From a candidate division WOR-3 bacterium (GTDB taxonomy: Bacteria; Hydrothermota; 32-111), in contig JBBFKX010000002.1 of the NCBI GenBank assembly GCA_037481815.1, positions 15,300 to 79,299 of the forward strand: 64,000 nt of DNA. The letters are read 5' to 3'. Numbering within the stretch: the first letter of the stretch is position 1; each line of letters opens with the position of its first letter. The notes below the pieces were generated by a model. It was not told where the DNA came from and ran no database searches. It worked only from the letters and a program-made list of their open reading frames with translations. A program made the translations under genes and the position numbers. Of the stretch, positions 294 through 50,300 are shown piece after piece.

Positions 294-664
294 AGATATC
301 AAATGGGATAGATATCATAGAAGTTAAAAGGATAAAAGATAAATTTGAAAAAAATCAAAAATTCAAAGAGAAAATTTTTACTGAAAACGAATTGAACCAA
401 GTGAAGGGGCTTGAAATAGAATATATAGTTCTTGCAGGAAAATGGGCTTCAAAAGAAGCATTTTCAAAAGCACTTGGAACAGGTATAGGAAAAGAACTTG
501 ATTGGAAAGATATGGAGATCATAAACGATATCAATGGAAAACCTGAAATAAGAATTTCTCAGAATCTTATCAAAAAATATAAAATAGATCAGATCTCTCT
601 TTCGATTTCACATATAAAAGATTATGCCATAGCATCAGTTTTTATTCTTTTCAACCAAACTTGA
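290..664 (+). CDS. acpS: holo-[acyl-carrier-protein] synthase (4'-phosphopantetheinyl transferase)
   Basis: 124 aa; N-terminal GIDIIEVKRI motif and WASKEAFSKALGTGIG core typical of AcpS; size typical. Confidence 0.8.
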   Translation: MKISNGIDIIEVKRIKDKFEKNQKFKEKIFTENELNQVKGLEIEYIVLAGKWASKEAFSKALGTGIGKELDWKDMEIINDINGKPEIRISQNLIKKYKIDQISLSISHIKDYAIASVFILFNQT

Positions 665-3217
665 AATCTTTTTCTTGATACCCTTTATTGAAAGGTTATC
701 ATCCTTTTCAACTTTTGAAATTTTTATGAGATATTCTTTATACATTTTAATCAAGTATTTAAAATTTTCATTTGAAATCAATTTATAAATAGTAATAAAT
801 TCCTCATAATTATTCAAATCACCTAAAAGTTGCATATATCTTAAAGTTGAAGAAAATTCTGATAGATAATTCGATATCGATTGACGAACAACTCTATCCT
901 CTTCCTTATCAATCTTTTTCACAAAAAGTTCAACAAGATCAAACTTATGTTTTCTAAAACATTCAAGAATCTCAACTTTTAATCTGTAACTTCCTTTATC
1001 GTAATGCTCCAGTAAAAATGTTAAATCAACTGTTGTATCAAGATTTCCAATAGCAAAAACTGAAAGTTCTTTGATTTTTTGATCTGGATAAGAAAGGTGT
1101 TCTTTCAATGTCTGGAATGATCTATTGTATTTCGCCTGTGAAAGTATATAGATTATATTTTTTTTCGTATTTTTATCTTCGCTCCTGTTCAACTTTTCGA
1201 TCAATTTGTCTTTTAAAATATCTGAACAGTTTTTGAACAGATAGTTCATCGCTTCAAGTTCAAGTCCATCATCGGTTGAGATTTTTTTATCAAGAACATA
1301 TTTTACAGATTCATTTTCCCGTTTTAAAAGTATTTTTCTTGCTTTTTCAACTTTATAAAAGTTATCCCTTACAGCCCACTCTGATGAGATTTCAAATATT
1401 TTTTCTATCGGTAAATCTTCTGAAACAAAAAATGTATCCGGTTCTTTCTTTTCTTCAACAAATCCAACATCAACACCAAATCCATAATATTTGTTTATCC
1501 AACTGATTGAATCTTTGTTTGATTGCTTTGAATAAAAATCTTTCCCTTCACAGTCAATAAAAAGTCCAATACCTGAAAATCCTCTCGATTCGTTCACATC
1601 TCCATTTGAAAGTTTTTCACTTGAAAAATAGGAGTCGTTCCCTTTTTTATCAAGAAATATTCCAACAGAGTTGTTTAAGCCAACACCCTGACCACCTGAA
1701 ACGGTATAGTTGTCATCACCCTTCTGATCGATCAAAACCCCATAAGCAAAATCATGTCCTTCTCCTTGCGATGGACCATACCTTGAAAAGAACATATCAT
1801 CACCTGAATAATCGAACAAACCACCCACAGAAAGATGAATCCCGGATCCCTGTGCATACTGTGCTGAAGAGTAATAATCGTTTCCAGAAAAATCGAAAAG
1901 AAGTCCAACACTGTGCCAGTAACTTCCTCCCTGCCCAAAAACAGAGGAGAAATAGTTATCGTTCCCTTTATAATCAACAAGAATTCCGACTCCACCACAT
2001 GTTCTTGGTCTTAAACCAAATCCAAAGCCCTGACTCATCGAAAGATAATCGTTTTCAAGTAAAGGTGCATGCTTGAAAAATGTTCCTGATATATAATGGT
2101 CGTCACCTGAAGAATCAACAAGTATACCAGTACCTTTAACAAAACCAAATCCCTGTGAAAATGCAGAAGAATAATATATATCGTTTCCAGATTTATCGAT
2201 CAACTCTCCCCTTCCAAAGTAGCCCGCACCCTGCGTGAAAAATCCTCCTGAATAAAAATCGTTTCCACCACCATCATAAAGTTGTGAAAATCCTATAAAA
2301 GCTGCCCCCTGTGAAAAGTTGTATGTTTTATAAAAATCGTTACCATTAAGATCGAACAAAAAATTGACACCGTTTATTGCACCACAGGAAACCTTAAAAC
2401 TGTCTGTTGAAATATACTGGTCATCTCCATCAAAATCTATAATAAACCTGATTCTTTTTGTATAAGGATAAACAACCCCACAACTGTTAAAATATTTATC
2501 ATCACCACCAAGATCAATTATAAAATCATATTCATCATAATATGAGTTTGAATAAAAATCTCCAATAAACAATCTCCCATTTGAAAGAAAAGTATCAACA
2601 GGATAGAGTTGTCCATTAACAAAAAGTTCGATTATTCTTTTTTTAAAATTTTCAGTTAAAATTTTTACCTTTTCAAAGTCAGAATTTACCAGATAAGAAT
2701 AATTTACAAGGGAATCAACCTTTAAAGAATTAGTATCAATATTTATACCAAGAGATTGCTCTATCCTTCCTTTATATAGATAAGACAATGATTCTTCAAA
2801 AAAAAGTAATGGAATAATCTGTAAAATATCTCGACTTTTTTCAACATTTATTTTAATTTTTTCTCTCAAAATCTGATTGACATCTCCGGTATATTTTTCA
2901 ACAAGTTCAAAATGGTTTGTGATTTTTTCATAATCATTTTTTTCATAAATTTTATCGTGCAAATTTACAATCGAATCCAAATAAAACTCTCTTTTCTTAA
3001 CAAGTAGCAATGGATTGTTTAAAAGTGTATCTGCAAATGGCATTTTAAAGGAATCGTTAACAGAAAAATCTTTTTTAAAATTGAAATCTTTTTCCTCTAT
3101 ACCAAAATTTCTACCTTTTTCAATTATCATCTTGTAATCCTCTTCTGGAACTTTTGCAAAAATTGTTGAAAAACAAAAAAGTAAAAATAAAAACTTTTTT
3201 AAACTTCCAAAAAACAT
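635..3217 (-). CDS. secreted repeat protein: signal peptide, about 12 tandem ~23-aa Gly/Asp/Tyr-rich repeats (predicted beta-solenoid), C-terminal HEAT-like repeats
   Basis: N-terminal hydrophobic signal-like segment (MFFGSLKKFLFLLFCFSTIFA); repeated units such as LVDYKGNDNYFSSVFGQGGSYWHSVGLLFDFSGNDYY; C-terminal 300 aa alpha-helical with repeating hydrophobic periodicity. No confident family recalled. Confidence 0.6.
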   Translation of the reverse strand: MFFGSLKKFLFLLFCFSTIFAKVPEEDYKMIIEKGRNFGIEEKDFNFKKDFSVNDSFKMPFADTLLNNPLLLVKKREFYLDSIVNLHDKIYEKNDYEKITNHFELVEKYTGDVNQILREKIKINVEKSRDILQIIPLLFFEESLSYLYKGRIEQSLGINIDTNSLKVDSLVNYSYLVNSDFEKVKILTENFKKRIIELFVNGQLYPVDTFLSNGRLFIGDFYSNSYYDEYDFIIDLGGDDKYFNSCGVVYPYTKRIRFIIDFDGDDQYISTDSFKVSCGAINGVNFLFDLNGNDFYKTYNFSQGAAFIGFSQLYDGGGNDFYSGGFFTQGAGYFGRGELIDKSGNDIYYSSAFSQGFGFVKGTGILVDSSGDDHYISGTFFKHAPLLENDYLSMSQGFGFGLRPRTCGGVGILVDYKGNDNYFSSVFGQGGSYWHSVGLLFDFSGNDYYSSAQYAQGSGIHLSVGGLFDYSGDDMFFSRYGPSQGEGHDFAYGVLIDQKGDDNYTVSGGQGVGLNNSVGIFLDKKGNDSYFSSEKLSNGDVNESRGFSGIGLFIDCEGKDFYSKQSNKDSISWINKYYGFGVDVGFVEEKKEPDTFFVSEDLPIEKIFEISSEWAVRDNFYKVEKARKILLKRENESVKYVLDKKISTDDGLELEAMNYLFKNCSDILKDKLIEKLNRSEDKNTKKNIIYILSQAKYNRSFQTLKEHLSYPDQKIKELSVFAIGNLDTTVDLTFLLEHYDKGSYRLKVEILECFRKHKFDLVELFVKKIDKEEDRVVRQSISNYLSEFSSTLRYMQLLGDLNNYEEFITIYKLISNENFKYLIKMYKEYLIKISKVEKDDNLSIKGIKKKISSLVEKNKN

Positions 3218-3837: not shown

Positions 3838-3860
3838 CTCTATAAAATTTAAGTCAACAT

Positions 3861-3890
3861 AAAAAAAGTGGGATGATAATCATCCCACTT
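3861..3890 (-). terminator. Rho-independent terminator-like hairpin downstream of the 3918..6194 gene
   Basis: Perfect 9-bp stem GTGGGATGA / TCATCCCAC (3868-3876 and 3880-3888) with a 3-nt loop, followed on the minus strand by a U-run (plus-strand A7 at 3861-3867); lies immediately 3' of the minus-strand stop. Confidence 0.5.
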
Positions 3891-3917: not shown

Positions 3918-6194
3918 TTACTTTATAATGAACAAAAATTTTCCTTTTACAACATTTTTCGGTGTTTCAAGTTTAAAGAAATAGATATCAGAGGAAAACT
4001 TTTCTTTTTTCAAATCAACGATTATCTCCCTATTTACACCATTAAAATCAAGATTCTTAACAACTCTCCCATTTTTATCATAAATTTTTAAGTTTATTTT
4101 TCCTTTTACAGATTCAGAAAAAGTTGCATAGAATATGTTTGAAGTTATAGTTGAAACTTTTGTTTTTAGATCGATCTTCTCTTCTTTTGAAATTTCTTCA
4201 ATATTTGTCAACTCACTCGCTTTGAAAAGGTTATGTAAAAGTTCAACATAATCACCTTGTAATATACCATTCATAACAGACCAATCAGAAGGAAATATGT
4301 TGAGTCCTATCACTCCACCATAAGGTTGAGGAAGATCTCTATAGCCCAAAAGCCACTCACCATCATCCCACCTTGCAACAGTATCTGCACCAGGATTTAA
4401 AACAATATAATCTCTAAACATGTCGCTTAAATTTGTAACATTATCCATAAATGGGTGACCCACAACAAAAGTTCCAAGGTTTGCTGTAGTAAAATGGTTA
4501 TCACCATTTAAACTCTTAAATGGATTTATTAAAGTATCCATTATTCCACCTTCAAGATTGTTCCCATTATAATACCATGAAAAACCTCCGGTAATAACCC
4601 ATTTGCCTGAGTTTACAAATGAAAGAAGTGTATCTCCCATTGCTATTTTATCCAAATAACTATTGTCGGGATATGTGAAAACCATATCATAAAATGATAG
4701 ATCGTTACTGTTTGGTAAGTAAGTTGCTGCATTCATATAATCAATATTTCCGAAATCTGGGAACTCTTCTATCTGTTTTATTATGTTTGGTGAATTATCA
4801 TCAGCAACAGCCCAGAGTATATTTGGAGAATTGCCATATATCCAATACATATCAATATTTTCCAATATTTCTGACAATACATTATAATACGCATATTCAA
4901 TAGTCATTGTGGTTGCTATTATTCCTCCCTTATTTTGTCTTGAAATTAAAAGTAGAGTATCTATTGAATCAGCAGATAACAAAACAACATAAGAATTTTC
5001 TGGTAAATTTATCAGCCCCCCATGAGAAACAGAATTCCAATTAACAAGTGTCGTTGAATCTTCCTTAGAAAACTCATTTAAAAGAGGATGCCAACCATTT
5101 AATATCGCTACTGAATCAGTAGATCTTGAAGCCATCGTAAATCCAAAAGGCATTTCAACACCACTCCAATCATAAGAACTATAGGTTGCTCCATTTATCT
5201 GTAATATACCACCGTTGTTAACCCAATCTTCATATTTTGTTCTGTTGTTTGAAATCGCTTCATAAAAACTTCTCTCCTGTTGTGAAGCAAATATACATTT
5301 TTGAAATCTTGAAAGGTCAACAAGACCAATCTCGCTTTCATTAAAATGATGGAAAGCTATATTATACTTATAAAAAACATCTTCATTTGAGGTTGACCCC
5401 CATGGAGCATGGTTTTCAAAATACGCAATCCTTGTTTTGGCAAATCCAAGATCAAATCTGTAAGCACTGGTTCCATAATATGTGCTAATCCAGAGATCAT
5501 TCCCATCAAAAGCAACACCTTCTCCATAATTTGACATATCCGGATTAGGAAAACTATCAAGAATAATTGGTGGATCAACAGAAATATCAAGTTGTTTTAC
5601 ATACTCTGTAATATTATCAAGAACCCATAGAGTTGAATCTTTTCCACAATAAGCCATATCCATTGGCCAACCGATAACAGATGAAATGTGTATTGTATCA
5701 ATAATGTGAATCAAAGTATCTGTTACAAAAATATAACCAGCAGTGGATGCTATATAAAGATTTCGCCCGTCAGATGTAACACCTCTTGTGTTTACTCCTC
5801 CAGGAGAAATGAAAGTAGTAACATGGGTTCCATTCTTTTCAATTTTGTGAATACTTCCATTCGTCCAATCTGAAATATATAATCTTTCTCCCACTATTCC
5901 TATTCCGAATATGTATCCTGTAGTTGCCATCGTAAAGGAATCTATTGTTCCATAAATATAATCTATTCTATAAACTTTCGCAGGATTGGAATAGGTGTTC
6001 GCTAAATAAAAATATCTTCCATCAAACTCAAGTCCATTTGAATTTGTTCTATTATAATTCAATGTATCTATTACAGTTTCATTGATGCTAATACTTTTTA
6101 TATTAACATTTTCACTGTTAGCACCTGTTGGATCAAATGGGAAAAGATAAATGAAAAAAGATAAAAGTAAAAAGAAAAGTACTAATTTTTTCAC
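3918..6194 (-). CDS. secreted protein with type IX secretion system C-terminal sorting domain (Por_Secre_tail-like)
   Basis: N-terminal signal peptide (MKKLVLFFLLLSFFIYLFPF); last ~70 aa (LKIYDKNGRVVKNL...DIYFFKLETPKNVVKGKFLFIIK) fit the T9SS CTD pattern; body unassigned. Confidence 0.65.
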   Translation of the reverse strand: MKKLVLFFLLLSFFIYLFPFDPTGANSENVNIKSISINETVIDTLNYNRTNSNGLEFDGRYFYLANTYSNPAKVYRIDYIYGTIDSFTMATTGYIFGIGIVGERLYISDWTNGSIHKIEKNGTHVTTFISPGGVNTRGVTSDGRNLYIASTAGYIFVTDTLIHIIDTIHISSVIGWPMDMAYCGKDSTLWVLDNITEYVKQLDISVDPPIILDSFPNPDMSNYGEGVAFDGNDLWISTYYGTSAYRFDLGFAKTRIAYFENHAPWGSTSNEDVFYKYNIAFHHFNESEIGLVDLSRFQKCIFASQQERSFYEAISNNRTKYEDWVNNGGILQINGATYSSYDWSGVEMPFGFTMASRSTDSVAILNGWHPLLNEFSKEDSTTLVNWNSVSHGGLINLPENSYVVLLSADSIDTLLLISRQNKGGIIATTMTIEYAYYNVLSEILENIDMYWIYGNSPNILWAVADDNSPNIIKQIEEFPDFGNIDYMNAATYLPNSNDLSFYDMVFTYPDNSYLDKIAMGDTLLSFVNSGKWVITGGFSWYYNGNNLEGGIMDTLINPFKSLNGDNHFTTANLGTFVVGHPFMDNVTNLSDMFRDYIVLNPGADTVARWDDGEWLLGYRDLPQPYGGVIGLNIFPSDWSVMNGILQGDYVELLHNLFKASELTNIEEISKEEKIDLKTKVSTITSNIFYATFSESVKGKINLKIYDKNGRVVKNLDFNGVNREIIVDLKKEKFSSDIYFFKLETPKNVVKGKFLFIIK

Positions 6195-6254
6195 ACTCCC
6201 TCCTTTTAAGTTTAAATTTATTATAGACCTTTAAATAAAAATTTCAACAAAAAT

Positions 6255-10396: not shown

Positions 10397-10810
10397 CTAT
10401 TCTCCAAAAACCTTTAATATTATTCTCTTTTCTCTCATCCCATCAAATTCAAAATAAAAAATTCTTTCCCAAACACCAAGATCAAGTTTTGAATCTGTTA
10501 TCGGAATAATAACCTGATGGTTGATCAGGATTCTTTTAAGATGTGCATCACCATTATCTTCACCAGTATTATGATGTTTATAATCTCTTCTTTCGGGTGC
10601 AAGTTTCTCAAGCCACTCAAAAATGTCCTGCCACAACCCTTCCTCATAATCGTTAACAAGAATACCTGATGTGATATGCATACTTGATACAAGAACAAAA
10701 CCTTCTTTAACTTTACTATCCTTTACAATCTTTTCAACCAAATCGGTTATATGAACTATATCTTTTCGTTTTTTTGTTTTTATCTTTAAATATTCAGTTT
10801 TGATTATCAA
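10397..10810 (-). CDS. YjbQ/UPF0047-family protein (secondary thiamine-phosphate synthase-like)
   Basis: 137 aa; conserved HITSGI and [15 protein letters not shown] motifs typical of YjbQ. Confidence 0.75.
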
Positions 10811-11936
10811 AGAACACCTCCTTTAATTTTTTTCTATAGGTTTCAACTGAATCCAATCTATCATATTTAAAATCAGGATAAATTTTCTTCCAATCATTTA
10901 CAACTTTTTCGATTAAAGATTTCAAAGCCATATGATTGTTGTTTTCAAATATGTACAATTTTTTATAATCTTTCAACAACTCTTTAGCAGGTGTCAAATT
11001 TGAAGCTATTATAATTTTACCACATTTTGCCGCCTCAAAGATCACTCTACCAGATGTCTCTGGCCAGATAGAAGGGAATATGAGAACATCAAAACTGGCT
11101 AAAACCTGATCGATTTTCTCACTTTCGAATTTACCTTTAACTGATATCCTTTTATCTTTAACTTTATTTTTAACATCACCCCATAAAAGTAGTTTTATAT
11201 TTCCATCTTTTATAAGTTTAAAAGATTTTAAAACCGTATGTAACCCTTTATGGTAAGCTGAATGACCGATAAAAGCAAAAACAGGGTATTCTTCCTTTTC
11301 CCTTTTTTTACATAAAATATCCTTTTGAAAATTTTTTAAAACAACACTTTTATCATTTAAATTCAAAAATCTGTTCGTTATTTCAAAAGATTTTTTTGAA
11401 GGGTAAATAATTTTATCGATGTATAAAAAAATTTCGTCAAAAAATTTTTTTCGATTTTTATACCAGTTCAACCTTTTCATAAACAATGCTAAAAATGGGA
11501 ATAGAAGATCTCTTATCTGTCTTGTGATTGGAAGAAAAGGATATTTATCCATATAGCAATAGATGCAGTTTCTTCCATAAGGTCCGGAGCATAACATTTT
11601 TCTGTTGTTTATAAGAACCACTCTTTCACAGATAGAGTAATAATCATGAGAGACAAAACCAATTTTTATATTTTTCTTTTTGACTACATTTAAAATTTTT
11701 GGGGTAATGAATTTCAATGAATGAAGCAACAGTAAATCAAAATCTTCATTTCCAATCTTATTGAAAAAATCTTCATCATTTAAAAAATTTTTATCTTTTT
11801 TAACTATCAAAATTCTTCTATCATTCACTCCTGTAAATGATGTTAAAATTTTTTCATCATCAAGAGCTAATTCTTTTACAAACAGCGATGAACCACCATC
11901 ATCTTTGAACTCATCTATATAGTGTAAAATTTTCAT
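10794..11936 (-). CDS. glycosyltransferase, GT-B fold (family 4-like)
   Basis: 380 aa; C-terminal [21 protein letters not shown] resembles the GT4 E-x7-E region. Confidence 0.65.
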
Positions 11937-13135
11937 AACAAATACTCCAGAATTTTTTCAAACTGTATTACGAACCTATTTTTGTCAAAAGGTCCATCTT
12001 TATATCCTTCAACTGCTTTACTACCTTTTAATGAAGTTAATCTTGCATTATAGGATAAATTTTCTTTTAGGTTTTTATCAAGGTATAACTGCTTGAGATA
12101 ATTGTAAGTCAAAATATAATCCTGAAAAGGAACAAGGAAGCCATTGAATCCATTTTTCACAATATAGCATGACCCCCAGCAGTATGAGTTAATTGTAGGG
12201 ATACCATAGGAGTGTGCTTCAACACTCACGATACCAAACGATTCGGCTATCGAAGGTAAAAGGAAAACATCAGTGTTTAAAAAGAGTTCCTCTTTCTTTT
12301 TTTCTGATACATGGGGATAGTAAATTATAAAATCTTCATTTAAACTTCTAAAATATTTTTTATCGATCTTCCCTACGATTGTGAATCTTATATTTTTAAA
12401 TTCAGAATATAACATTTTTGTTGCTTTCAAACTCGTTTCTATCCCTTTTTCATAATTCTGCCTTCCAATAGAGAGAATATTGAAAATACCATTTCCACCT
12501 TTTGAGGTTTTTTCAGGAATGTTAATGTAAGAGTTCAATTGAAAAACTTTTTTTCCAAATTTTTCCAAATAATCTCTCTCATAGGAGTTCAGACAGATCA
12601 AAATATCAGAAAGTTCATATAAACTTTTATAATAAGGATGAAAAAACTCATATGAAAACCTTTCGGTATGAGGTAATGTCGAATGGATTAAAGGTATAAA
12701 AACTGTTTTTCTACCATATTTTTTAGAATAAAAAAGTGCAGGGTAAACTATCGATGAAAAAGGAAGAAAACCTGTTATGATGATATCATACTTTTTTACA
12801 TTTTTTTTAAGATTTAATACTAAGGATGGGGATAAAATTTTAAAATTCAAAGTGTAATATTTTAAAAGGCCCATCTCTTCAAAATATTCCATTATCCTGT
12901 TCTTATATGGGAAATTTATAAGAAAAAACCTTTTTATCAAAGAACCATAAAAATTTTCCTCGGTTTCTAACATTTTATCATTTTTTTCATAAGAATCATC
13001 TGATACCTTTAAAGTATAAACATCAACATCAAAACCTTTTTCTTTAAGGAAATCAAAAATTTGTTTTGAATACACTTCTGAACCTGAAACAACAGGGAAA
13101 AACCTGTTAAAAACTAGTAAAAATTTTTTAGCCAT
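11933..13135 (-). CDS. glycosyltransferase, GT-B fold (family 4-like)
   Basis: 400 aa; ESFGIVSVEAHSYGIPTI motif typical of GT4. Confidence 0.7.
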   Translation of the reverse strand: MAKKFLLVFNRFFPVVSGSEVYSKQIFDFLKEKGFDVDVYTLKVSDDSYEKNDKMLETEENFYGSLIKRFFLINFPYKNRIMEYFEEMGLLKYYTLNFKILSPSLVLNLKKNVKKYDIIITGFLPFSSIVYPALFYSKKYGRKTVFIPLIHSTLPHTERFSYEFFHPYYKSLYELSDILICLNSYERDYLEKFGKKVFQLNSYINIPEKTSKGGNGIFNILSIGRQNYEKGIETSLKATKMLYSEFKNIRFTIVGKIDKKYFRSLNEDFIIYYPHVSEKKKEELFLNTDVFLLPSIAESFGIVSVEAHSYGIPTINSYCWGSCYIVKNGFNGFLVPFQDYILTYNYLKQLYLDKNLKENLSYNARLTSLKGSKAVEGYKDGPFDKNRFVIQFEKILEYLL

Positions 13136-14462
13136 TCTTTTTGCCTATGTATGTAATTTTTATTTTTTCCTTTGTTTCAATCTTTAAATGTAATTTCCCT
13201 TTTACGACTTTGAAATAAAAAGGAGATTTTTTTGATAAGATTTCTGTGTCATTGTGTTTTATTAAAATCTCTTTATCTTCAGGATAATAAACGATCAAAT
13301 ACTCACAATCCTCATCACTCTCCAAAAAAATCTCACCTTCTTTTGACACGAATCTTCCAACAGGAAAATTTTTATCAAGAAAAGAAAAGCCCTTTCCGAT
13401 GTAAAGATCATCTATTCCAAAAGTGATAGAATTTTTTAAATTTGGTATTTCGTTAAAACTTGAAACCACTTTTACCTTTTCGTAAAACACCTCTTCGATT
13501 GGGAAAGGATTAAAACTCTTATCGAGGAAATCTTCAACCCTTCTTGCATTTAGCAAAAATTTTCTTTTAAATCTGATAAAAAGAATTTTTGGAAACTCTA
13601 TCAACAATGAAAATAATATTTTCAAATGTAGAAGATTTTTTTTTAAAAATCTTGTTTTAAGAAAAAACATTTTTGTTAACAAAAGATTTTTAAAAGATAA
13701 AAATTTCAATAGAAAATAGTACTGATTTTTTAAAATTAAAAATTCTTTTCTCTTTGAAAAATTTTTAAAACTTCCAGAGTACTCATGATAACATACCGCA
13801 TCCCTGACAAACCCAATTTTGAAATCTGTTTCAGTTAAAATTCTCATCGAAAGATCAGCATCTTCATAAAAGGACGAATAAGAAAAATCAAAAAGTCCTG
13901 TTTTATTTAAAACTTCCTTTTTTATTCCAAAACAACCACCTGTTAAAAGGATGTTTGAATCTCTGGAAAATTCTACATCATCGTTTAAACCATAATCTCG
14001 ATTTTTAGCAAAACCTGCAAGATTCAATACCAGTCCTGTCGAGTTTATTATATCCCTTTTACCATTAAATTTTATAAGGGGAATCGCTGCTCCGATATCC
14101 TCATTTAAAAAGATCCTGTCAAAGTTTTCCAAAAAATCTTTATCCAAAATGATATCGTTGTTCATCACAAGAAGTATATCAGCACCAGAATAGAAGAAAT
14201 AATTTAATCCAAAATTGTGTGAAACATAACCAAAATTTTTGTTGACTCTTGTAACTTTAACTGCAGGAAACAATCTATGAACATCTTCAACTGAAGAATC
14301 GTTTGAACAGTTATCTATAAGATGAACTATATAATTTTTATAAGTTTGCTTAAAAATCGAATCGATGGATTCAAAGAAAACATCTTTCAATAATGAACTT
14401 CCATTAAAATTGACTATCTGAACTATGTAAAGATTTTTCTTCATAAAAATTCTTTGATGCAT
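13128..14462 (-). CDS. glycosyltransferase family 2-like protein with C-terminal extension
   Basis: N-terminal GT-A-like region (IVQIVNFNGSSLL, DNCSNDSS, DED-like motifs); 444 aa. Confidence 0.6.
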   Translation of the reverse strand: MHQRIFMKKNLYIVQIVNFNGSSLLKDVFFESIDSIFKQTYKNYIVHLIDNCSNDSSVEDVHRLFPAVKVTRVNKNFGYVSHNFGLNYFFYSGADILLVMNNDIILDKDFLENFDRIFLNEDIGAAIPLIKFNGKRDIINSTGLVLNLAGFAKNRDYGLNDDVEFSRDSNILLTGGCFGIKKEVLNKTGLFDFSYSSFYEDADLSMRILTETDFKIGFVRDAVCYHEYSGSFKNFSKRKEFLILKNQYYFLLKFLSFKNLLLTKMFFLKTRFLKKNLLHLKILFSLLIEFPKILFIRFKRKFLLNARRVEDFLDKSFNPFPIEEVFYEKVKVVSSFNEIPNLKNSITFGIDDLYIGKGFSFLDKNFPVGRFVSKEGEIFLESDEDCEYLIVYYPEDKEILIKHNDTEILSKKSPFYFKVVKGKLHLKIETKEKIKITYIGKKNG

Positions 14463-15286
14463 CTTTTTAAAGCATCATCAAATGGTGGCATTTCTTTAAT
14501 TCCAAGGTCATTTAATCTTATACTTTTCAAAGCACAATTTTTCGGAATCTTTTCAATCAGTTCATCACTTCTGATATTTATTTTTACATTTTTTTTCAGA
14601 TAATCTCTTATCATTTTAGCAACTTCAATATAAGAAACCTTGCCCAAGTTTACAAGATGTAAAATCCCGGAAACGGTTCTGTCTTTCTTCAGTAATTCTT
14701 CCATCTTTAAAGATAAATCCAAGGCGTATGTTGGAGAAGTGAGTATGTTATATAAAGAGACATCTTTTCCATCGATTATCTTTTTTATCGTAAATCCTAT
14801 TACATTATGACCTGGGGTAAAGTTCCCATATCCAAAAATTTCATCAGTTCTTATTATCAGAGCATCAGGATTGTTTTCCAAAATCAATATTTCACCTTTA
14901 AATTTAGAAAATCCGTAAACGGTTTTCGGTTCAGGAGAATCTGATTCAATATATTCTTCCCCTTTTTCACCATTAAAAACAAATCCAGTAGAAAGGTGAA
15001 CAAACTTTATACCAAGTTCTTTTGAAATCTTTGCAAGTTCGCTCGGTGCATATGCATTTATTTTCAGTGATTCTTCAGGATTTTTTTCACAATAATAAAT
15101 GTTTGTGATTCCTGCACAGTTAATACATATATCAATTTTATTTTCCTTAACAAACAGATAAAATTTTTCATAATTCACTATATTCAAATCCCCATGTGAA
15201 ACTGCAAAGACCTTAAATTCTCTTTTAAAATTTTCTGCAAGATATTTCCCAAGAAGACCTCCACTTCCCAAAATTAAAACATTCAT
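14441..15286 (-). CDS. NAD(P)-dependent sugar reductase/epimerase, RmlD-like (dTDP-4-dehydrorhamnose reductase family)
   Basis: GSGGLLG Rossmann motif, YGFSK catalytic Y-x3-K, 281 aa. Confidence 0.6.
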   Translation of the reverse strand: MNVLILGSGGLLGKYLAENFKREFKVFAVSHGDLNIVNYEKFYLFVKENKIDICINCAGITNIYYCEKNPEESLKINAYAPSELAKISKELGIKFVHLSTGFVFNGEKGEEYIESDSPEPKTVYGFSKFKGEILILENNPDALIIRTDEIFGYGNFTPGHNVIGFTIKKIIDGKDVSLYNILTSPTYALDLSLKMEELLKKDRTVSGILHLVNLGKVSYIEVAKMIRDYLKKNVKINIRSDELIEKIPKNCALKSIRLNDLGIKEMPPFDDALKRCIKEFL

Positions 15287-15341
15287 ATCCCCCTCCTGAC
15301 AGCGAAATAACCATCAAATTTTTTATAATAATTAGAAAAAT

Positions 15342-16469
15342 TCATAATTTCCATTTAACAGGTATTTTTACAAAACCCAAATGTGTTTTTTTTGCTCCAT
15401 CAACCTCAAATGAAGAAGCAAAATCTATATGATCGTAAGGAAATCTGTTATGAACATCATAGAATGCAATGGAAATATAATATTTACCTGGATTCAGGTT
15501 TACTGGATTGAAAGAAAAACTTATTTCACCATAATCTTTGAGATCAACATATCTCCCTTCATAATCATAGATGTTTGGACCAGATATCACATTTGAAAAT
15601 TGATCGGTTATTGAAAACCCAAAGATTCCCTTATCAACTTTTCCATTTTTTTTATACCTGACCTTAAAAGATATTTCCTTTCGTTCGAAAGAAGAATATC
15701 TATTGTTTTCGCATAATATTTCAACTATCTCTATCTCTCTGCTTCCTCTTCTTATTATATTTTTTGATGGATCATTCTCTTTTTTCGAAAGATAATTTGA
15801 AACAACATCTTCCGGATTTCCAATATCAACGATCTCACCATTTTCAAGAAGTGCTACCCTGTCCGAAAATCTTGAGATCAGTCCCATATCATGTGAAACA
15901 AAAAGTATTGTAACTCCTTCATTTTTTAGATTCTCAACTTTTTCAAGACATTTCCTCTGAAAATGGATATCTCCAACAGCAAGTACTTCATCTATAATGA
16001 GTATCTCTGGATTTGAAAATATGGCAACAGAAAATCCCAATCTGATATACATCCCCGTTGAATACTCTTTTACCTTCATATCAACATAATTTCCCAATTC
16101 TGAAAACTCTAGAATCTTATCGTATATCGAGTTTATATATTTTTTTGAAAATCCCATAATCGTTCCATAAAGAAAGATGTTCTCCTTACCAGATAACTCA
16201 GGGTTGAATCCAATTCCAAGACCAAGGAAGGGAGAAACTTTACCATAAACCCTTACTGTACCTTTATCAGGTTTTAATATTTTTGAAACTATCGATAATA
16301 GAGTTGTTTTCCCGGAACCATTGGCACCTATTAAAGAAAAAAACTCGTTTTTCGAAACATCAAAGGAAATATTTTTTAATGCCTCAATTTTTTTCTTTTT
16401 AAAAAAACCAACATTGGGATAGTATGTTAAAGCAACATCTTTTAAAGATATAACAATGTTACTTTTCAT
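15342..16469 (-). CDS. polysaccharide ABC exporter ATP-binding protein (Wzt/TagH-like) with C-terminal extra domain
   Basis: Walker A GANGSGKTT, signature LSGKEN-like region, Walker B IIDEVLAVGD; about 130-aa C-terminal extension as in Wzt. Confidence 0.8.
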   Translation of the reverse strand: MKSNIVISLKDVALTYYPNVGFFKKKKIEALKNISFDVSKNEFFSLIGANGSGKTTLLSIVSKILKPDKGTVRVYGKVSPFLGLGIGFNPELSGKENIFLYGTIMGFSKKYINSIYDKILEFSELGNYVDMKVKEYSTGMYIRLGFSVAIFSNPEILIIDEVLAVGDIHFQRKCLEKVENLKNEGVTILFVSHDMGLISRFSDRVALLENGEIVDIGNPEDVVSNYLSKKENDPSKNIIRRGSREIEIVEILCENNRYSSFERKEISFKVRYKKNGKVDKGIFGFSITDQFSNVISGPNIYDYEGRYVDLKDYGEISFSFNPVNLNPGKYYISIAFYDVHNRFPYDHIDFASSFEVDGAKKTHLGFVKIPVKWKL

Positions 16470-17218
16470 AAACTCTTAACCATCCTATCCTCATAAATGT
16501 TGAATATAAGATATCCAATAAGTACAAAAATTATTGCGAAGAAAATGGAATTTATAGTAACTGTTACATCTGGTAGATTTGAATAAAAAAGTATATTCTG
16601 GATCCCTATAACATAAACAGCAACAGGGTTTATAAGATACAGGTGAATAAAATTGTATGGCACGAGTTCAAATGGGTAAAATACTGGACATAGAAAAAAT
16701 AATGCCTGAACAAGTATCTCCCATCCTGCCTTAACATCTTTGAAAAAAACATAAATTATGGAAAGAATTGTTGATATACCAAAAAGAAAAAATGAAAATA
16801 TTATAATGTAAGGAATAAAAAACAGAGAAATAAAAGGAAAAGATTTGTTTATAACGATATAGAAAATTATGTAAATCACATATTCAAAAAAAACTATTAT
16901 AAGATTTGAAATAACAAGTGATAATGGTAAAATCAACCTTTCGATCTTAACCTTTAAAATCAATTCTCTGTTTCTGTGGAATAACTGTAAGGATTGTGTT
17001 GTTGTATTGACAAAAAATCTCCATAAAGTTGTTCCAGCAAGAATAAAAAGTGGATAATTTTTCATGTTGAATCTCATAAACCTGTTAAAAACGATATAGA
17101 TTATGATCATCAAAAAGAGAGGTTCAAAAATTATCCAGAAAAAGCCCAACAATGAATTTTTATATTTCGTTTTAAGATCTGATTTTATGAGTTCAACTAT
17201 TAGATCAAGATTTATCAT
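16466..17218 (-). CDS. ABC-2 type polysaccharide exporter permease (Wzm/TagG-like)
   Basis: 250 aa, about 6 TM helices, translationally coupled to the Wzt-like ATPase. Confidence 0.7.
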   Translation of the reverse strand: MINLDLIVELIKSDLKTKYKNSLLGFFWIIFEPLFLMIIIYIVFNRFMRFNMKNYPLFILAGTTLWRFFVNTTTQSLQLFHRNRELILKVKIERLILPLSLVISNLIIVFFEYVIYIIFYIVINKSFPFISLFFIPYIIIFSFFLFGISTILSIIYVFFKDVKAGWEILVQALFFLCPVFYPFELVPYNFIHLYLINPVAVYVIGIQNILFYSNLPDVTVTINSIFFAIIFVLIGYLIFNIYEDRMVKSL

Positions 17219-20414: not shown

Positions 20415-21375
20415 AAATGTGAATATCGCTCTTGTAGGAGCAACAGGTCTTGTTGGAAGAGAATTTTTAAAACTTGTTGAAGAAAGGGATTTCCCTTTTA
20501 AACAGTTGTATCTTTTTTCTTCAAAAAAAAGTGCTGGAACAAAATTTAAAGTAAAAGGTAAAATCCATACTGTTAAAGAGTTTGATAAAGATGATTTTCA
20601 AAATATAGATCTTGCATTCTTTGCTACTTCTGCGGAAGAATCCACAAAATATATAGAAGAGATTAAAAAATTTAAAACGGTTTGCATAGACAACTCTTCA
20701 GCTTTCAGATTGAAAAAAAATATTCCCCTTGTGGTCCCTGAGATAAATTTTCATATGATAAAAAGTAGAACAAAAATAATAGCTAATCCAAACTGTTCTA
20801 CGATACAACTCGTTTTGGTATTAAACAGTTTGTTAACAATTGAAAAAATACATTCCGTGAACGTTTCAACATACCAGGCGATATCAGGTGCAGGGAAAGA
20901 TGCTTTGACAAAATTCTTTGAACAAAAAGATGGTAGATATAAAAAGGGAGAACCAGTTTTTTTCAATAACCTAATACAACACATCGGGAATTTTAATCAA
21001 GATTGGTGCGAAGAGGAAAATAAAATAATCAACGAAACAAGGAAAATTTTAAACGAAAAGAGTTTAAATGTTTCTGCAACAACCATTAGAGTTCCTGTTA
21101 TAAATTCTCACACTGAGGTTGTTATGGTAGAGTTTAAAAGAAAAATTGATTTCAAAAAGGTAGTTGAAGTCCTTCAAAAAACCCCATATCTGATACTGTT
21201 AAAAGAAACCGACCCTATCTCTGTCTCTGGAACCAACCTTGTTTTTGTTTCCCGCCTAAGAAAAGATAAATTCTTAGATAACAGAATCCATTTTGTTATT
21301 ACTGCGGACAACCTAAGAATAGGTGCTGCCCTCAACGGTATAAAAATAGCCGAAAGGATAATATATGAAAGTTAA
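20398..21375 (+). CDS. asd: aspartate-semialdehyde dehydrogenase
   Basis: VGATGLVG NAD motif; active-site region NPNCSTIQL; the ORF-track start is a TTG overlapping lysC, and an in-frame GTG at 20416 is an alternative. Confidence 0.85.
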   Translation: MNLSNRNVNIALVGATGLVGREFLKLVEERDFPFKQLYLFSSKKSAGTKFKVKGKIHTVKEFDKDDFQNIDLAFFATSAEESTKYIEEIKKFKTVCIDNSSAFRLKKNIPLVVPEINFHMIKSRTKIIANPNCSTIQLVLVLNSLLTIEKIHSVNVSTYQAISGAGKDALTKFFEQKDGRYKKGEPVFFNNLIQHIGNFNQDWCEEENKIINETRKILNEKSLNVSATTIRVPVINSHTEVVMVEFKRKIDFKKVVEVLQKTPYLILLKETDPISVSGTNLVFVSRLRKDKFLDNRIHFVITADNLRIGAALNGIKIAERIIYES

Positions 21376-22525
21376 AATAATTTTTTTGATTTTGTTTCTT
21401 ACAAACATTTACCTTTTTTCTGCTTTCGATGACGCAATCATTGTTTCTGAAATAAATATAGATTCAACCAATTTCCCCTATTTAAATTTGAATATTGAGA
21501 TCCCATCTAAGGATATAATTTTTTTAAAGGATAGTTTAGGATATTTTTCAAAAATAAACATCATATTCACCTTTTTAAAAGGAAATGATAATCCCATACT
21601 TTCAAAAGAAATAGATACAACAATAAAATATGATACTTTCCCATCATCCATTGATACGCTGATAATAAAATTTAAAAACATTTCTTTAAATGTTCCAGAG
21701 GAAACAAAAAAATTGGTAATAAGTATTCTCGACAAAAAAACCGATAGATCAAAAAATTTTATTTTTAAAGTCGAGATACCAAAGATACCACAGACAGGCA
21801 ACTATCTTAAAAGTTTTTCAATAATAAATGGAACAAATGGTTCATTTTTCGCTGGAGAAACGATAAAAGTTGAAACTAAATTATTTAAAAGGAATGAGAA
21901 ACAGGGAAACTACAATCTTTTGATAATCGATCAAAACGAAAGGATAGTTTTCAAGAAAAAGTTCGCTTCTAAAAATTTAACTGATACCCTTTTGATAATC
22001 AAGGAACTTTATGGTGGGAAATACAGGTTGAAAATCGAATATATTGAAGATAATAAAATCACAAATTTTCTAACAAAAGACCTGTTTATAAAATTCTCAT
22101 TCATAAACTCGGAAAATGAATTCCAGGATATTTTAAACGCTTTATCTTATATCGCTAAATGGGATGAATTAGATAAACTGAAAAAATCCACAAAAGAAAA
22201 TAGAGAGGAAGAATGGAACAGGTTCTGGATAAAACAGATTTCAGAACCTATTATAACAACGAATATTTCTTATGCTGAATTTATGGAGAGGTACAACTAT
22301 TCGAATAAAAATTTTTCAGGATTCAAAAAAGGTTATAGAACAGATTTTGGAAGGATATATATAATTTATGGGAAACCTGATGAAATTGAAAGACATCCAT
22401 TTGATAAAGATAGTAAGCCATATGAGATCTGGTACTATTACAAAAACAACATACAGTTTATCTTTGTTGATGTAAATGGCTACGGAGAATATGTTCTACA
22501 GAATTATCTTGAACAGTTGAGGTGA
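21365..22525 (+). CDS. secreted GWxTD-like domain protein
   Basis: Signal peptide; C-terminal WNRFW...GYRTDFGRIYIIYGKPDE...YEIWYY segment resembles the GWxTD domain signature. Confidence 0.5.
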   Translation: MKVKIIFLILFLTNIYLFSAFDDAIIVSEINIDSTNFPYLNLNIEIPSKDIIFLKDSLGYFSKINIIFTFLKGNDNPILSKEIDTTIKYDTFPSSIDTLIIKFKNISLNVPEETKKLVISILDKKTDRSKNFIFKVEIPKIPQTGNYLKSFSIINGTNGSFFAGETIKVETKLFKRNEKQGNYNLLIIDQNERIVFKKKFASKNLTDTLLIIKELYGGKYRLKIEYIEDNKITNFLTKDLFIKFSFINSENEFQDILNALSYIAKWDELDKLKKSTKENREEEWNRFWIKQISEPIITTNISYAEFMERYNYSNKNFSGFKKGYRTDFGRIYIIYGKPDEIERHPFDKDSKPYEIWYYYKNNIQFIFVDVNGYGEYVLQNYLEQLR

Positions 22526-23841
22526 ATATGAGAATTTTTAAAATTTTGATTTTGACACTTTTTTCAATAAATGTTTTTGCAAACTATGATGTATCGATTA
22601 CATCTTTTAAAGCAAAAGATAACATACATCAAATATTTTATGATATCCAGTTCTACGCAAAGGATATCACGTATAAAAATGTCGATGGAAAAAATACCGG
22701 GATTCTACATTTTAAAATTTTTGTTAAAAACCTTGAAACATCACAGGAAATATATGATGAATGGAATTCAAAATCTTATATTTCACAATCTGAACAACTC
22801 AACAGAGAAATGTTCCTTCTCGATCGATCATCTTTTATCCTCTCTCCTGCAAAATATGAAATAAGAAGTTTGATAGTTGATTCTTTTTCAAAAAAGGAGT
22901 TTTCAAAAATCGATACGATAATTTTAGAAACTTTTGACAGTAAACCAACAATTTCAAATATACTTGTAGGATACACCGTAAAAAAAGATTCTCTTGAAGG
23001 TAAATTTACAAGAAACGGATATTCAGTTACTCCAAATCCATCAAAAATATTTACTCTTGTGAACCCTTTGATTTATCTGTATTTTGAAATTTATAATTTA
23101 CACAACAAAGAATATACTCTTGATTACCTTATATACAATGATAAAGATTCATTGATCACAACAATAAAAGGTGAAAAGAAAATATCGCCTCCTTTCGATT
23201 TTGTTGTGAATAACTTTTTCAACACTCTTGGTTTTAAAGATGGAAAGTATAGATTGGATGTCAAAATAAAATATGATGATAAAGAAATTCTTCAATCAAC
23301 AAATTTTGAAAAAATTTCAAACCTCTATACAGGCAGAGAAACCAAATATATTCTAACAGAAGAGGAAATGAAATATTATTCTTTAATAGATTATATTGCA
23401 ACTCCTTCCGAGTTAACACAGTTCAAATCCATAAAAGATGAAAAAGCAAAACATAATTTCCTTCTAAATTTCTGGGAAAGGAGAGATATCGATAAAACAA
23501 ACGATAAACTCGAATCTTTGAAAGATTTTATCTTAAAAGTTAAATATGTCAGAAAAAATTTTTCATCGGGTGGAGAAGATGGCTATCTTTCAGCGAGAGG
23601 AAGGATATATTTAAAATATGGTCCACCGGATGAAACATTACTTGTTCCGATGAGTAAAGGATCAAAAAATTATGATTCCTGGATTTATTATTCGAAAGGT
23701 GGCATGCAGTTCATCTTTATGGATATAAAAGGATTTGGTAAATATGAACTTATATATACAAATGTTATGGAAGAGGAGATACCACAAAATTGGACAAATT
23801 ACATTGACGATTACAATATAATCCAATTTTATAGAAATTAA
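22522..23841 (+). CDS. secreted GWxTD-like domain protein (paralog of upstream gene)
   Basis: Signal peptide; C-terminal FWERRD...GYLSARGRIYLKYGPPDE...YDSWIYY segment parallels the upstream gene. Confidence 0.5.
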   Translation: MNMRIFKILILTLFSINVFANYDVSITSFKAKDNIHQIFYDIQFYAKDITYKNVDGKNTGILHFKIFVKNLETSQEIYDEWNSKSYISQSEQLNREMFLLDRSSFILSPAKYEIRSLIVDSFSKKEFSKIDTIILETFDSKPTISNILVGYTVKKDSLEGKFTRNGYSVTPNPSKIFTLVNPLIYLYFEIYNLHNKEYTLDYLIYNDKDSLITTIKGEKKISPPFDFVVNNFFNTLGFKDGKYRLDVKIKYDDKEILQSTNFEKISNLYTGRETKYILTEEEMKYYSLIDYIATPSELTQFKSIKDEKAKHNFLLNFWERRDIDKTNDKLESLKDFILKVKYVRKNFSSGGEDGYLSARGRIYLKYGPPDETLLVPMSKGSKNYDSWIYYSKGGMQFIFMDIKGFGKYELIYTNVMEEEIPQNWTNYIDDYNIIQFYRN

Positions 23842-25414: not shown

Positions 25415-25698
25415 ACATAAGAATTACAGGTAAACATCTTGAAATTTCACCAGAAATAAAAAATTTTATTGAAGAATCCTTAAAACACCTTGAAAAATTT
25501 GAACATAATATAATCGATTGTAATGTAGTGGTCGAATTGAATGGAAGAAGATATAAAGTCGAAATAGATGTTGATGTAAAAAAACATAGATTCGTTTCTT
25601 CAGATGAATCTTTCGATCTCATGACATCGATAGATAAAGCGATTGATAAAATGAAAACCCAGCTTAAAAAGTTTGAGGAGAAAAAACATGACAGATAA
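25411..25698 (+). CDS. hpf: ribosome hibernation-promoting factor (HPF/RaiA family, short form)
   Basis: 95 aa; MNIRITGKHLEISPEIK N-terminus is the classic HPF start. Confidence 0.8.
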   Translation: MNIRITGKHLEISPEIKNFIEESLKHLEKFEHNIIDCNVVVELNGRRYKVEIDVDVKKHRFVSSDESFDLMTSIDKAIDKMKTQLKKFEEKKHDR

Positions 25699-26686
25699 TG
25701 TAAAACAAAGAAGTGAGTTGAGCGTAGAAGACCTTTTTAAAGACAACAAAGAGGAATTAGTTTTGAAAGTGGTGTCAGGGAACAACGGGATGACAAACCT
25801 TATTAAAAGCAAAGAGGTTATAAATGCTGGACTCGCTTTTGCAGGATATACAGAACATATTCAAAAAAGCTCCATAATAGTTGCCGGTGATGTAGAACTT
25901 GATTTTTTTAACAACCTGAACAGTTCAAAGAGAAAGCTCTTTTTAAACTCAATCTTTGAAAAAGGATGTGCTGCTTTATTTATCGTAACTGAAAGAAATA
26001 TCCCTAAAATAATAAAAATACTTTCAAACAAAAAAGGTATCCCGGTTATTACAAGTAATAAAACTATATACAATACGATAAATAAACTCTCACTTTACCT
26101 TTCAAGCAAACTTGCTGAATCGATAACAAAACATGGAACACTTGTAGATATTTATGGTGTTGGAGTTTTACTTACAGGCAAAAGTGGAATCGGGAAAAGT
26201 GAGTGTGCTCTTGATCTTGTAGATAGAGGTCATCGTCTCGTTGCTGATGATGCTGTTAAAATTTATAAAAGAGGAGAGCATATTTTAATGGGAACAGGGA
26301 TTGCACCTGATTCGTCAATCCAATATCATATGGAAGTCAGAGGTGTCGGAATACTCGATATAGCCAAAATATTTGGGATAAGAGGTGTCAGATTGCACAA
26401 AAGAATCGAGATTGAGATAAACCTGATAGAATGGAAACCTGACACTGATATCGAAAGGGTCGGACTCAAAGAGGAAACATCCAACATTCTCGGAGTCGAA
26501 ATCCCTTTAGTTAAAATACCACTTTTACCAGGTAAAAATATTTCAGTTATAGCAGAAGTTGTAGCACTTAACCATCTTTTAAAAATTTCAGGTTATGACA
26601 CGAGCAAGGTCTTCAATGCTACACTGATAAAACTTATGCAGGAAAAAGCAAAAAAACTGGCAAGACTTGATGAGGACGAAGAATGA
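25673..26686 (+). CDS. hprK: HPr kinase/phosphorylase
   Basis: P-loop GKSGIGKSE followed by LVADD; 337 aa; the start may instead be the ATG at 25688. Confidence 0.85.
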   Translation: MRRKNMTDNVKQRSELSVEDLFKDNKEELVLKVVSGNNGMTNLIKSKEVINAGLAFAGYTEHIQKSSIIVAGDVELDFFNNLNSSKRKLFLNSIFEKGCAALFIVTERNIPKIIKILSNKKGIPVITSNKTIYNTINKLSLYLSSKLAESITKHGTLVDIYGVGVLLTGKSGIGKSECALDLVDRGHRLVADDAVKIYKRGEHILMGTGIAPDSSIQYHMEVRGVGILDIAKIFGIRGVRLHKRIEIEINLIEWKPDTDIERVGLKEETSNILGVEIPLVKIPLLPGKNISVIAEVVALNHLLKISGYDTSKVFNATLIKLMQEKAKKLARLDEDEE

Positions 26687-27063
26687 TATACGGAATTTTT
26701 ACAGGTCATAACAATTTTGCATACGAAACAGTTAAAAGCTGCGAAAGTATAATCGGTGATCAGCAAAACTATTCAACAATTTCAAACAGAGAACTTTCAA
26801 ACGATGAGATCTATGAGCAGTTTGAAAAAATTTTAAAAACTCATCCTGATTGTAAAGAGTTTTTCATATTTATAGATTTCTATGGCTCTTCAATCTCACT
26901 TCCTGCAATAAAGATTAAACAGAAAACAGAAAAGGAAACAATTAAACTCATATTCGGGTATAATCTTCCGATGGTTATCGATTTTTTTCTTCACAGGAAT
27001 AAATTGACTGGAGAACAACTTTTCGAAAAAATCATCGATGTTGGAAAAAGAGGTATAAGATGA
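26683..27063 (+). CDS. PTS EIIA component, mannose-family-like (orphan, regulatory)
   Basis: 126 aa; N-terminal IFTGHNNFA with the conserved His position of EIIA-Man; no EIIC/EIID in the window. Confidence 0.6.
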   Translation: MIYGIFTGHNNFAYETVKSCESIIGDQQNYSTISNRELSNDEIYEQFEKILKTHPDCKEFFIFIDFYGSSISLPAIKIKQKTEKETIKLIFGYNLPMVIDFFLHRNKLTGEQLFEKIIDVGKRGIR

Positions 27064-27530
27064 AAATATTAAGGATAGATGACAGGTTGATCCATGGACA
27101 GATAATCGCTGGATGGCTACCAAATCTTGGTATTTCAAACATTTTGCTTTTCAACGAATCTTTACCTTTAGATATGTTACAGATCTATAAAAATATGATA
27201 CCGGAAGATGTAAATCTCCAGATTATTGATATAAATCATATTGATATGATCCCTGATAAAAACTCTTCCATATACCTTTTTGAAAATATAAAAACCTTAA
27301 AAAATAATTTGAACAAACTTGAAAATATCAGTTTTGACATTTTTAATCTTGGTGGAATGAGGAACAAAGATAACAAACAAAAAATCTTGGATTTTATTTA
27401 TATGGATGAAACAGATATAGAAGATTTCTTCGCTATAGTAAAAAGTTTGAAATTAAAAAAAATCAACGCTCAACAGTTGCCAACAACACAATCTTATGAT
27501 ATAAAGAGAATTCTCGAAAGAAGGAGTTGA
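27060..27530 (+). CDS. PTS EIIB component, mannose/sorbose-family-like (orphan, regulatory)
   Basis: N-terminal [10 protein letters not shown] motif containing the phosphorylatable His of EIIB-Man/Sor. Confidence 0.65.
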
Positions 27531-27531
27531 G

Positions 27532-29791: not shown

Positions 29792-29793
29792 TT

Positions 29794-43518: not shown

Positions 43519-43519
43519 A

Positions 43520-48967: not shown

Positions 48968-48976
48968 AAAAACTCC

Positions 48977-50284: not shown

Positions 50285-50300
50285 GAAAATCCTCCTTTAT

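Follow-up and report, generated by a model that had tools for sequence, protein, structure and literature searches.

Background

Cargo proteins of the secretion system known as type IX (T9SS), a system listed for Bacteroidota in a 2024 paper, are recognised by a C-terminal domain (CTD) whose functional motifs are a glycine at the start of strand beta4 (L-beta3-beta4) and a lysine in the last strand (C-t.) (PMC11285876). Two further described groups bear on the present work, namely the type-I glutaminyl cyclases, whose fold is a five-bladed beta-propeller (PMC7948796), and arCOG01314/DUF4350, a GldG/GH42M-like extracellular domain of flavodoxin fold with a C-terminal anchor (PMC5898192). Here we describe a gene at positions 3918 to 6194, on the minus strand, of a 64,000-nucleotide stretch (hereafter the window; contig JBBFKX010000002.1, positions 15,300 to 79,299, assembly GCA_037481815.1) from a candidate division WOR-3 bacterium. 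NCBI taxonomy treats WOR-3 as the phylum Caldifarciminota, placed directly under Pseudomonadati and outside the Fibrobacteres-Chlorobi-Bacteroidetes (FCB) group.

The gene product is probably a stand-alone exported protein of this WOR-3 (Caldifarciminota) bacterium, located at the cell surface. On balance, we favour a reading in which a T9SS type-A CTD follows a beta-propeller and two non-catalytic ThuA/DUF4350-like modules, the protein serving as an ectodomain for binding, scaffolding or oligomerisation. As a CTD-tagged protein of cargo type it would be ordinary for FCB-like candidate phyla, while being undocumented for WOR-3 in the literature that we searched.

A C-terminal domain resembling T9SS type A

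The initial annotation had recognised a T9SS-type sorting domain in the last ~70 residues of the protein. This call holds at the level of the family, where it is backed by hidden Markov model (HMM) matches, a predicted seven-strand sandwich and the hallmark motifs, but the window protein itself stays below both curated cut-offs. The T9SS type-A-like CTD spans residues ~678-758 (3921..4163, minus strand). Of the two models suggested for checking it, TIGR04183 matched residues 693-753 with its positions 14-69 of 72 (E=1e-4) and, at 22.2 bits, marginally missed its curated cut-off of 23 bits, and TIGR04131, which represents the type-B CTD, gave no match at E<=10 on the window protein; CHU_C, likewise of type B, matched only weakly, in 3 of 13 family members. 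PF18962 aligned with residues 686-750 at 16.9 bits (E=0.0077), the cut-off being 27. Across the family, TIGR04183 matched 11 of the 13 members at E<=0.01 (best E=3.8e-7) and PF18962 matched 10 of them; two distant orthologues lie above the curated TIGR04183 cut-off (L010, 32.0 bits; L012, 34.1 bits), and PF18962 is a precomputed annotation on P0003, P0004, P0006, P0010 and P0014.

The match sits at the extreme C-terminus (693-753 of 758), with a signal-peptide-like N-terminus at the other end of the protein, and AlphaFold2 (AF2) predicted seven strands over residues 678 to 755 (predicted local distance difference test, pLDDT, 80-92; predicted template modelling score, pTM, 0.76 for the whole model). 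Both motifs defined for functional CTDs (PMC11285876) are present: G709, within YDKNGRVV of the beta3-beta4 loop, is invariant in the CTD alignment, and K750 and K752 lie in the last strand (VKGKFLFIIK); Y738 and F739 are conserved too. Because of its extreme C-terminal place, its recurrence in the family, the orthologues over the cut-off, the predicted strands and the motifs, we regard the CTD match as above chance.

Several observations weigh against T9SS sorting. Besides the two sub-threshold scores, the glycine of the 'GxYFF' motif is replaced by aspartate (Asp736) in the window protein, as it is in the two relatives nearest to it (SSDIYFF versus SSGVYFF), a change that may explain why the score is slightly low; in one subclade, the tail is scored better by FlgD_ig than by Por_Secre_tail; and a sequence profile of the CTD, searched against PDB sequences, retrieved no solved CTD, only chance-level immunoglobulin-like (Ig-like) matches. 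This last failure is expected, since CTDs are very divergent (PMC11285876), and is thus uninformative. Core components of the T9SS were found neither among the open reading frames (ORFs) of the window, scanned against NCBIfam and Pfam, nor in the scanned parts of ~240 kb of related loci. Furthermore, a 2024 review does not include WOR-3 among the phyla it lists with a T9SS, two genome papers on WOR-3 from 2025, with their supplements, make no mention of secretion systems, and our literature search for T9SS in WOR-3 or Stahlbacteria found nothing. The initial annotation had also taken the domain as a phylogenetic clue to the FCB group and its relatives; this was only roughly right: the closest relatives of the protein are labelled WOR-3, TA06 or Ca. 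Stahlbacteria, and WOR-3 is neither placed within the FCB group by NCBI taxonomy nor listed among T9SS phyla.

Taken at face value, the sub-threshold scores, the better fit of FlgD_ig in one subclade and its presence in 8 of 40 module carriers (see below), the lack of any T9SS gene found in the window, and the position of WOR-3 outside FCB and off the list of T9SS phyla could mean that the tail is a generic Ig-like or FlgD-like domain, and that the protein is exported by Sec and remains periplasmic or reaches the surface by another route in a WOR-3 lineage devoid of a T9SS. We consider this rather unlikely, as the domain invariably comes last in the protein, keeps the CTD-specific glycine and the terminal-strand lysine, exceeds the TIGR04183 cut-off in orthologues, matches also the CTD segments of the models for PorU, PorZ and T9SS-dependent peptidases, and recurs as the same tail on nearby peptidases. 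Sorting by way of a type-A CTD is therefore the reading that we retain.

At the opposite end, the region assigned to the signal peptide (residues 1-~25; 6120..6194, minus strand) begins with MKK followed by the 15-residue hydrophobic core LVLFFLLLSFFIYLF, which together form the sole hydrophobic segment of the protein (residues 1-~20 by hydropathy). AF2 modelled a helix at residues 2-17 and a low-confidence linker at 18-36, and the n- and h-regions are conserved in every relative. No lipobox cysteine is present, the only cysteines of the protein being residues 183 and 300. As the only hydrophobic stretch, and one without a lipobox cysteine, the N-terminus reads, by inspection, as a Sec signal peptide of the signal peptidase I type. 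The richness in Gly, Tyr, Thr and Trp noted in the initial annotation is real: measured against the window's remaining long ORFs, the enrichment is 5.7x for Trp, 1.6x for Thr, 1.4x for Gly and 1.35x for Tyr, with Lys and Glu at ~0.5x. Such a composition is typical of extracytoplasmic beta-rich proteins and was counted as an indication of export, together with the diderm envelope to which other genes of the window point.

In the pathway that we envisage, the signal peptide would first send the protein to the periplasm by way of Sec, and the protein would fold there. The type-A CTD, a predicted seven-strand Ig-like sandwich, would then be recognised by an outer-membrane translocon of T9SS type and would probably be cut off by a PorU-like sortase, upon which the mature protein would be released or anchored at the cell surface. 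Since no core gene lies in the window, and since the search was confined to these 64 kb of the genome, we infer rather than observe the dependence on a T9SS.

A propeller and two GATase1-like modules form the body

The body of the protein, a 'hypothetical' region left unassigned by the initial annotation, is no longer so: the structure prediction proposed there was run with AF2, and Foldseek resolved known folds, a five-bladed propeller of glutaminyl cyclase type and two modules of the class-I glutamine amidotransferase-like (GATase1-like) fold that resemble ThuA and DUF4350 proteins. The propeller occupies residues ~38-252 (5439..6083, minus strand), as supported by AF2, Foldseek and sub-threshold Pfam matches, and was predicted with pLDDT ~85-91 and about 21 strands. 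Its best Foldseek matches are the type-I glutaminyl cyclases 3mbr, 3nol and 2iwa (TMt 0.72-0.77, root-mean-square deviation (rmsd) 2.6-2.8 A, ~230 columns), so that the window protein shares the five-bladed fold of this enzyme class at a sequence identity of 10-16%. Pfam Glu_cyclase_2 (PF05096) reached 20.8 bits against a gathering threshold of 22.3 and covered model positions 21-146 of 249 only; the same weak match was seen at E<=0.01 in 5 of the 13 family members. YncE and NHL profiles also matched the propeller weakly. The conserved blade motifs GxxFDG, RGVTSDG and EGVAFDG look structural.

Whole-model Foldseek searches were swamped by propeller matches, and the middle region was therefore modelled and searched separately. 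It consists of module A (residues ~255-455; 4830..5432, minus strand), ThuA/DUF4350-like and without the cysteine nucleophile, and module B (residues ~456-662; 4209..4829, minus strand), both supported by AF2, Foldseek and profile searches; residues 562-614 of module B were poorly predicted. Foldseek matched the middle-region model to GATase1-like folds, namely 2gk3 (STM3548), the middle domain of glycoside hydrolase family 42 (GH42; 5xb7), 3rht, 3fij and 1o1y, the best match of a single module being to STM3548/2gk3 (TMt 0.63, rmsd 4.4 A). Pfam gave no match to residues 250-675 of the window protein even at E<=10, and GH42M was matched by one member of its family. We also asked of the two modules whether they arose by internal duplication and rejected this: hhalign gave E=0.26, with an alignment limited to the (W/G)HP motif. 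As hhalign was not significant and only (W/G)HP aligned, A and B were handled as distinct sub-types.

A catalytic class-I glutamine amidotransferase with a Cys-His-Glu triad was considered and rejected, there being no conserved cysteine nucleophile. No cysteine is invariant in the family, the elbow of module A reads N-G-A-T, and the candidate cysteine of module B (ITCGFSWY in relatives) is a glycine in the window protein. By the class-I GATase criterion the modules are thus non-catalytic, given the lack of a conserved cysteine and the non-catalytic nature of their best structural matches. The wider set of module A sequences (see below) shares the pattern PW, GGxLExH, PxH, SxHG, TLE and LEN, most of which is retained in the WOR-3 protein, with Asn334 in place of the first histidine. 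The conserved His and Glu positions of the window protein are H369, H391, E433 and E445.

Two points tell against a purely binding or scaffolding body: this role is itself drawn from the folds, and the wider module A set keeps its conserved His/Glu residues, a possible active or metal-binding site. One could accordingly picture a surface-displayed enzyme, either with an active type-I glutaminyl cyclase propeller, as the best structural matches (TMt up to 0.77) and the weak Glu_cyclase_2 signal would allow, or with a hydrolytic or metal-dependent site in the modules, where the histidines (LExH, PxH, SxHG) and glutamates (TLE, LEN) are nearly invariant across the wider set. We regard this as improbable. 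The Glu_cyclase_2 match is sub-threshold and covers about half of the model, identity to the cyclases is low, the recurring DG/GxG motifs belong to the architecture of the blades, and the WOR-3 family has an asparagine at the first module A histidine and no conserved cysteine nucleophile. Known bacterial glutaminyl cyclases, as described in PMC5837995 and PMC10653852, are moreover periplasmic and act on Sec substrates, not T9SS cargo. In our reading, the mature part is a binding or scaffolding ectodomain and not a classical enzyme, its most likely task being the binding of glycans or surface polymers or oligomerisation.

The gene, its relatives and its neighbours

The ORF reported by the initial annotation at 3918..6194 was confirmed as a complete gene of 758 codons plus stop, on the minus strand and with a GTG start, on the basis of the ORF list and the translation. 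A reading on the plus strand was rejected, as translation of the same coordinates is full of stops. A ribosome-binding site, GGAGGGAG (6196..6203, minus strand), was read directly from the sequence, with AAGGAGGGAG located 4 nt upstream of the GTG, and the alignment shows that all relatives share the MKK/MKR N-terminus. Further upstream, a consensus scan revealed the promoter-like sigma-70 site TTGAAA-16-TATAAT (6220..6247, minus strand; 11/12 consensus match), a pattern match only, as the regional total of such sites equals the shuffle expectation. The clean terminator described in the initial annotation is indeed there: an intrinsic terminator, AAGTGGGATGA-TTA-TCATCCCACTT followed by TTTTTATGTT (3856..3890, minus strand; terminator scan and sequence reading), combines at 3890..3866 an 11-bp stem, of which 5 pairs are GC, with a loop of 3 nt and a T-run, and lies 28 nt past the stop codon. 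With a ribosome-binding site, a shared N-terminus, a promoter-like site and a strong intrinsic terminator, the gene looks like its own transcription unit. The window has a GC content of ~30%, and the exact product is also on record on a 108-kb Logan contig (SRR33387333).

The family comprises 12 clusters of homologues, full-length or partial, at 41-89% identity. The full architecture has a narrow taxonomic range: it turned up in no more than 8 GTDB species genomes, whose labels are WOR-3, TA06, Ca. Stahlbacteria or simply 'bacterium', and the best match (90% identity) lies on the 1.39-Mb WOR-3 scaffold JBDRZU010000001.1. Fifty-six columns are invariant in the middle region of the family. A GTG start and the lack of any Pfam match over threshold might raise the suspicion of a decaying or mis-called ORF without function; the chance of this is negligible, and the idea is effectively refuted by conservation over the full length in 8 species at the identities given above, with the invariant middle-region columns, as well as by the confident fold (pTM 0.76) and by the gene having its own ribosome-binding site, promoter-like site and terminator.

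The order MutS2/Smr, target gene, thiamin pyrophosphokinase (TPK) and HEAT protein is kept only in close relatives (L001, L013). The HEAT protein itself (635-3217, minus strand) has 860 residues, a faint HEAT-repeat signal and no NCBIfam match, and adjoins TPK, the downstream neighbour of the target gene, in the close relatives L001, L006, L008 and L013. A conserved operon was considered and rejected, since the more distant members sit in other surroundings, with unrelated neighbours in L002/L003 and L004. The gene stands alone, with neighbours conserved only among close relatives.

Peptidases are a typical class of T9SS cargo. In the lineage of L002, L007 and L009, a protein combining an M28 peptidase with fn3 is encoded 3 kb from the orthologue and reaches 32.2 bits with TIGR04183, above the cut-off. 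Several neighbouring ORFs, including an S8 peptidase, also end in GVYF...K tails, confirmed by the model for the M28 protein only. The cluster of exported proteins whose tails look CTD-like, among them the S8 peptidase, two uncharacterised proteins and the M28-fn3 protein, occupies L009:1-5550 and L009:15415-18177 and occurs also in L002, L003 and L007. As far as the tails can be judged, this suggests that the lineage uses the CTD signal on other, typical cargo. Within the window, an HMM built from the CTD of the family found no other CTD-bearing ORF.

Surrounding genes of the window

The window encodes biosynthesis of polysaccharide and nonulosonic acid, Wzc, TamB, a BamA-like protein, pyruvate:ferredoxin oxidoreductase (PFOR), enzymes of the Dap pathway, XerD and MglA/B, and its BamA-like, TamB and OmpA genes show a diderm envelope. 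The BamA-like ORF (62481-64000, minus strand) is open to the window edge, with POTRA-like sequence running on upstream, so that the 490 aa listed for it, from a TTG start, are cut short by the end of the window.

T9SS cargo of Bacteroidota is attached to anionic glycan. Two large surface-polysaccharide clusters lie in the window, at 38404-50915 and 10794-17218, both on the minus strand. One of them, adjoining the target gene, encodes ABC export of Wzm/Wzt type, glycosyltransferases and RmlD, and the other, nonulosonic-acid-like, encodes a PseB/LegB-like protein, a LegC-like aminotransferase, a PseF-like cytidylyltransferase, a NodU-like carbamoyltransferase and Wzc. Either cluster could be the source of such a glycan.

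Further genes of the window deserve mention in their own right. Two adjacent, overlapping genes on the plus strand (21365-22525 and 22522-23841) each encode a GWxTD-domain protein (TIGR04514, 91 and 72 bits). At 29204-30291 (minus strand), a small Ras-like GTPase adjoins a GTPase-activating protein of MglB type, forming an MglA/MglB-like polarity or motility switch pair. At 25673-29202 (plus strand), HPr kinase, EIIA-man and IIB-sorbose of the phosphotransferase system (PTS) precede a protein of 556 aa that resembles methyl-accepting chemotaxis proteins. A 457-aa beta-CASP/metallo-beta-lactamase (MBL) ribonuclease (55739-57112, minus strand), situated between an MBL hydrolase and XerD, matches the 'type VII CRISPR-associated Cas14' model at E=9e-126, sub-threshold with 421 against 800 bits, and matches archaeal aCPSF1 as well. 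Finally, a 1,310-aa coiled-coil protein (50918-54850, minus strand) has only SMC/Rad50-like coiled-coil similarity, and its gene region contains the most extreme skews of the window (AT -0.43, GC -0.36 at 52-54 kb).

A mobile set of extracellular modules

The two modules of the window protein (4209-5432, minus strand), like those of the proteins P0016-P0224, belong to a very large mobile set of ~200-aa GATase1-like extracellular modules. An exhaustive HMMER search with the profile of the middle region retrieved 3,450 representative clusters, 1,742 of them at E<=1e-10 and 254 at E<=1e-30, with matches covering either half of the profile independently. Re-annotation of 166 proteins yielded 52 with a single A, 24 with A-A and 20 with B-B, as well as arrays of up to 7 copies per protein and a largest carrier of 4,940 aa; the CTD model built from the family finds a terminal CTD in about 30 of the 166. 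In these proteins, A and B each behave as a unit of their own and are shuffled.

Among 40 small carriers, related Pfam families were ThuA (6), DUF4350 (2), ABC_transp_aux/GldG (1) and GH42M (2), and the extracellular partners were Por_Secre_tail (9), FlgD_ig (8), dockerin (2), CARDB (2), TSP3 (1) and CBM56 (1); on the modules of several small carriers Pfam gave no match. Named carriers come from Thor-, Hod- and Kariarchaeaceae archaea, Methanofastidiosa and Anaerolineales, and DUF4350 is precomputed on many of them. In the small archaeal carriers, a single module stands between a signal peptide and a sorting signal at the C-terminus. Loki-CTERM matches P0127, and Heimdall-CTERM matches P0100, above the cut-off, and the bacterial carriers P0018, P0019 and P0022 pass TIGR04183. 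This carrier architecture agrees with the published description of DUF4350/arCOG01314 (PMC5898192).

To us, this un-modelled and widely shuffled set is the most interesting by-product of the study. We also put forward a broader proposal that we hold only tentatively: WOR-3 would run a working CTD-dependent, T9SS-like sorting, and the modules would represent a large, essentially unmodelled mobile extracellular set that evolution has joined to whatever C-terminal sorting signal is in use in the host, be it the T9SS CTD (bacteria), Loki- or Heimdall-CTERM (Asgard archaea) or dockerin, perhaps with a functional site built from the conserved His and Glu residues. The set, which is shared by Bacteria and Archaea and poorly annotated, lends itself well to the building of a new domain model and to functional studies of microbial surface proteins.

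Comparison with known systems

The protein adds evidence for sorting signals of T9SS type in WOR-3, a little-known phylum most of whose members are uncultured, and its modules lead to a large extracellular module set combined with different sorting signals. With T9SS type-A cargo such as RgpB of P. gingivalis and mirolase of T. forsythia, it shares a putative signal peptide, a multi-domain passenger and a predicted terminal seven-strand sandwich of ~80 residues, including the glycine of the beta3-beta4 loop and the lysine of the last strand (the protein ends in ...KGKFLFIIK). It differs from such cargo in its host, WOR-3/Caldifarciminota, where no T9SS has been described, in a score just below the cut-off, in the aspartate that replaces the glycine of 'GxY', and in a passenger that is neither peptidase nor glycosidase. 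Furthermore, it has no N-terminal glutamine after the signal peptide (the Q-rule).

The propeller is a five-bladed beta-propeller of the same size as that of the type-I glutaminyl cyclases (PF05096), but it is only 10-16% identical to them, stays below the Pfam threshold and is joined to other domains and to a CTD. STM3548 (2gk3), in turn, is a cytoplasmic, single-domain protein at 13-16% identity and is itself of unknown function. Also close are the non-catalytic ectodomains DUF4350/arCOG01314, GldG (ABC_transp_aux), ThuA and the GH42 middle (trimerisation) domain, which have the same GATase1-like (flavodoxin-type) fold and share the motifs GG-x-L-x-x-(H/N), (W/G)HP and SxHG. With the DUF4350/arCOG01314 group the likeness extends to the extracellular context, a signal peptide combined with a C-terminal anchor or sorting signal, whereas the window protein departs from all four in having no Pfam match over the modules, in carrying A and B as tandem sub-types, and in coupling them to a propeller and a T9SS-type CTD.

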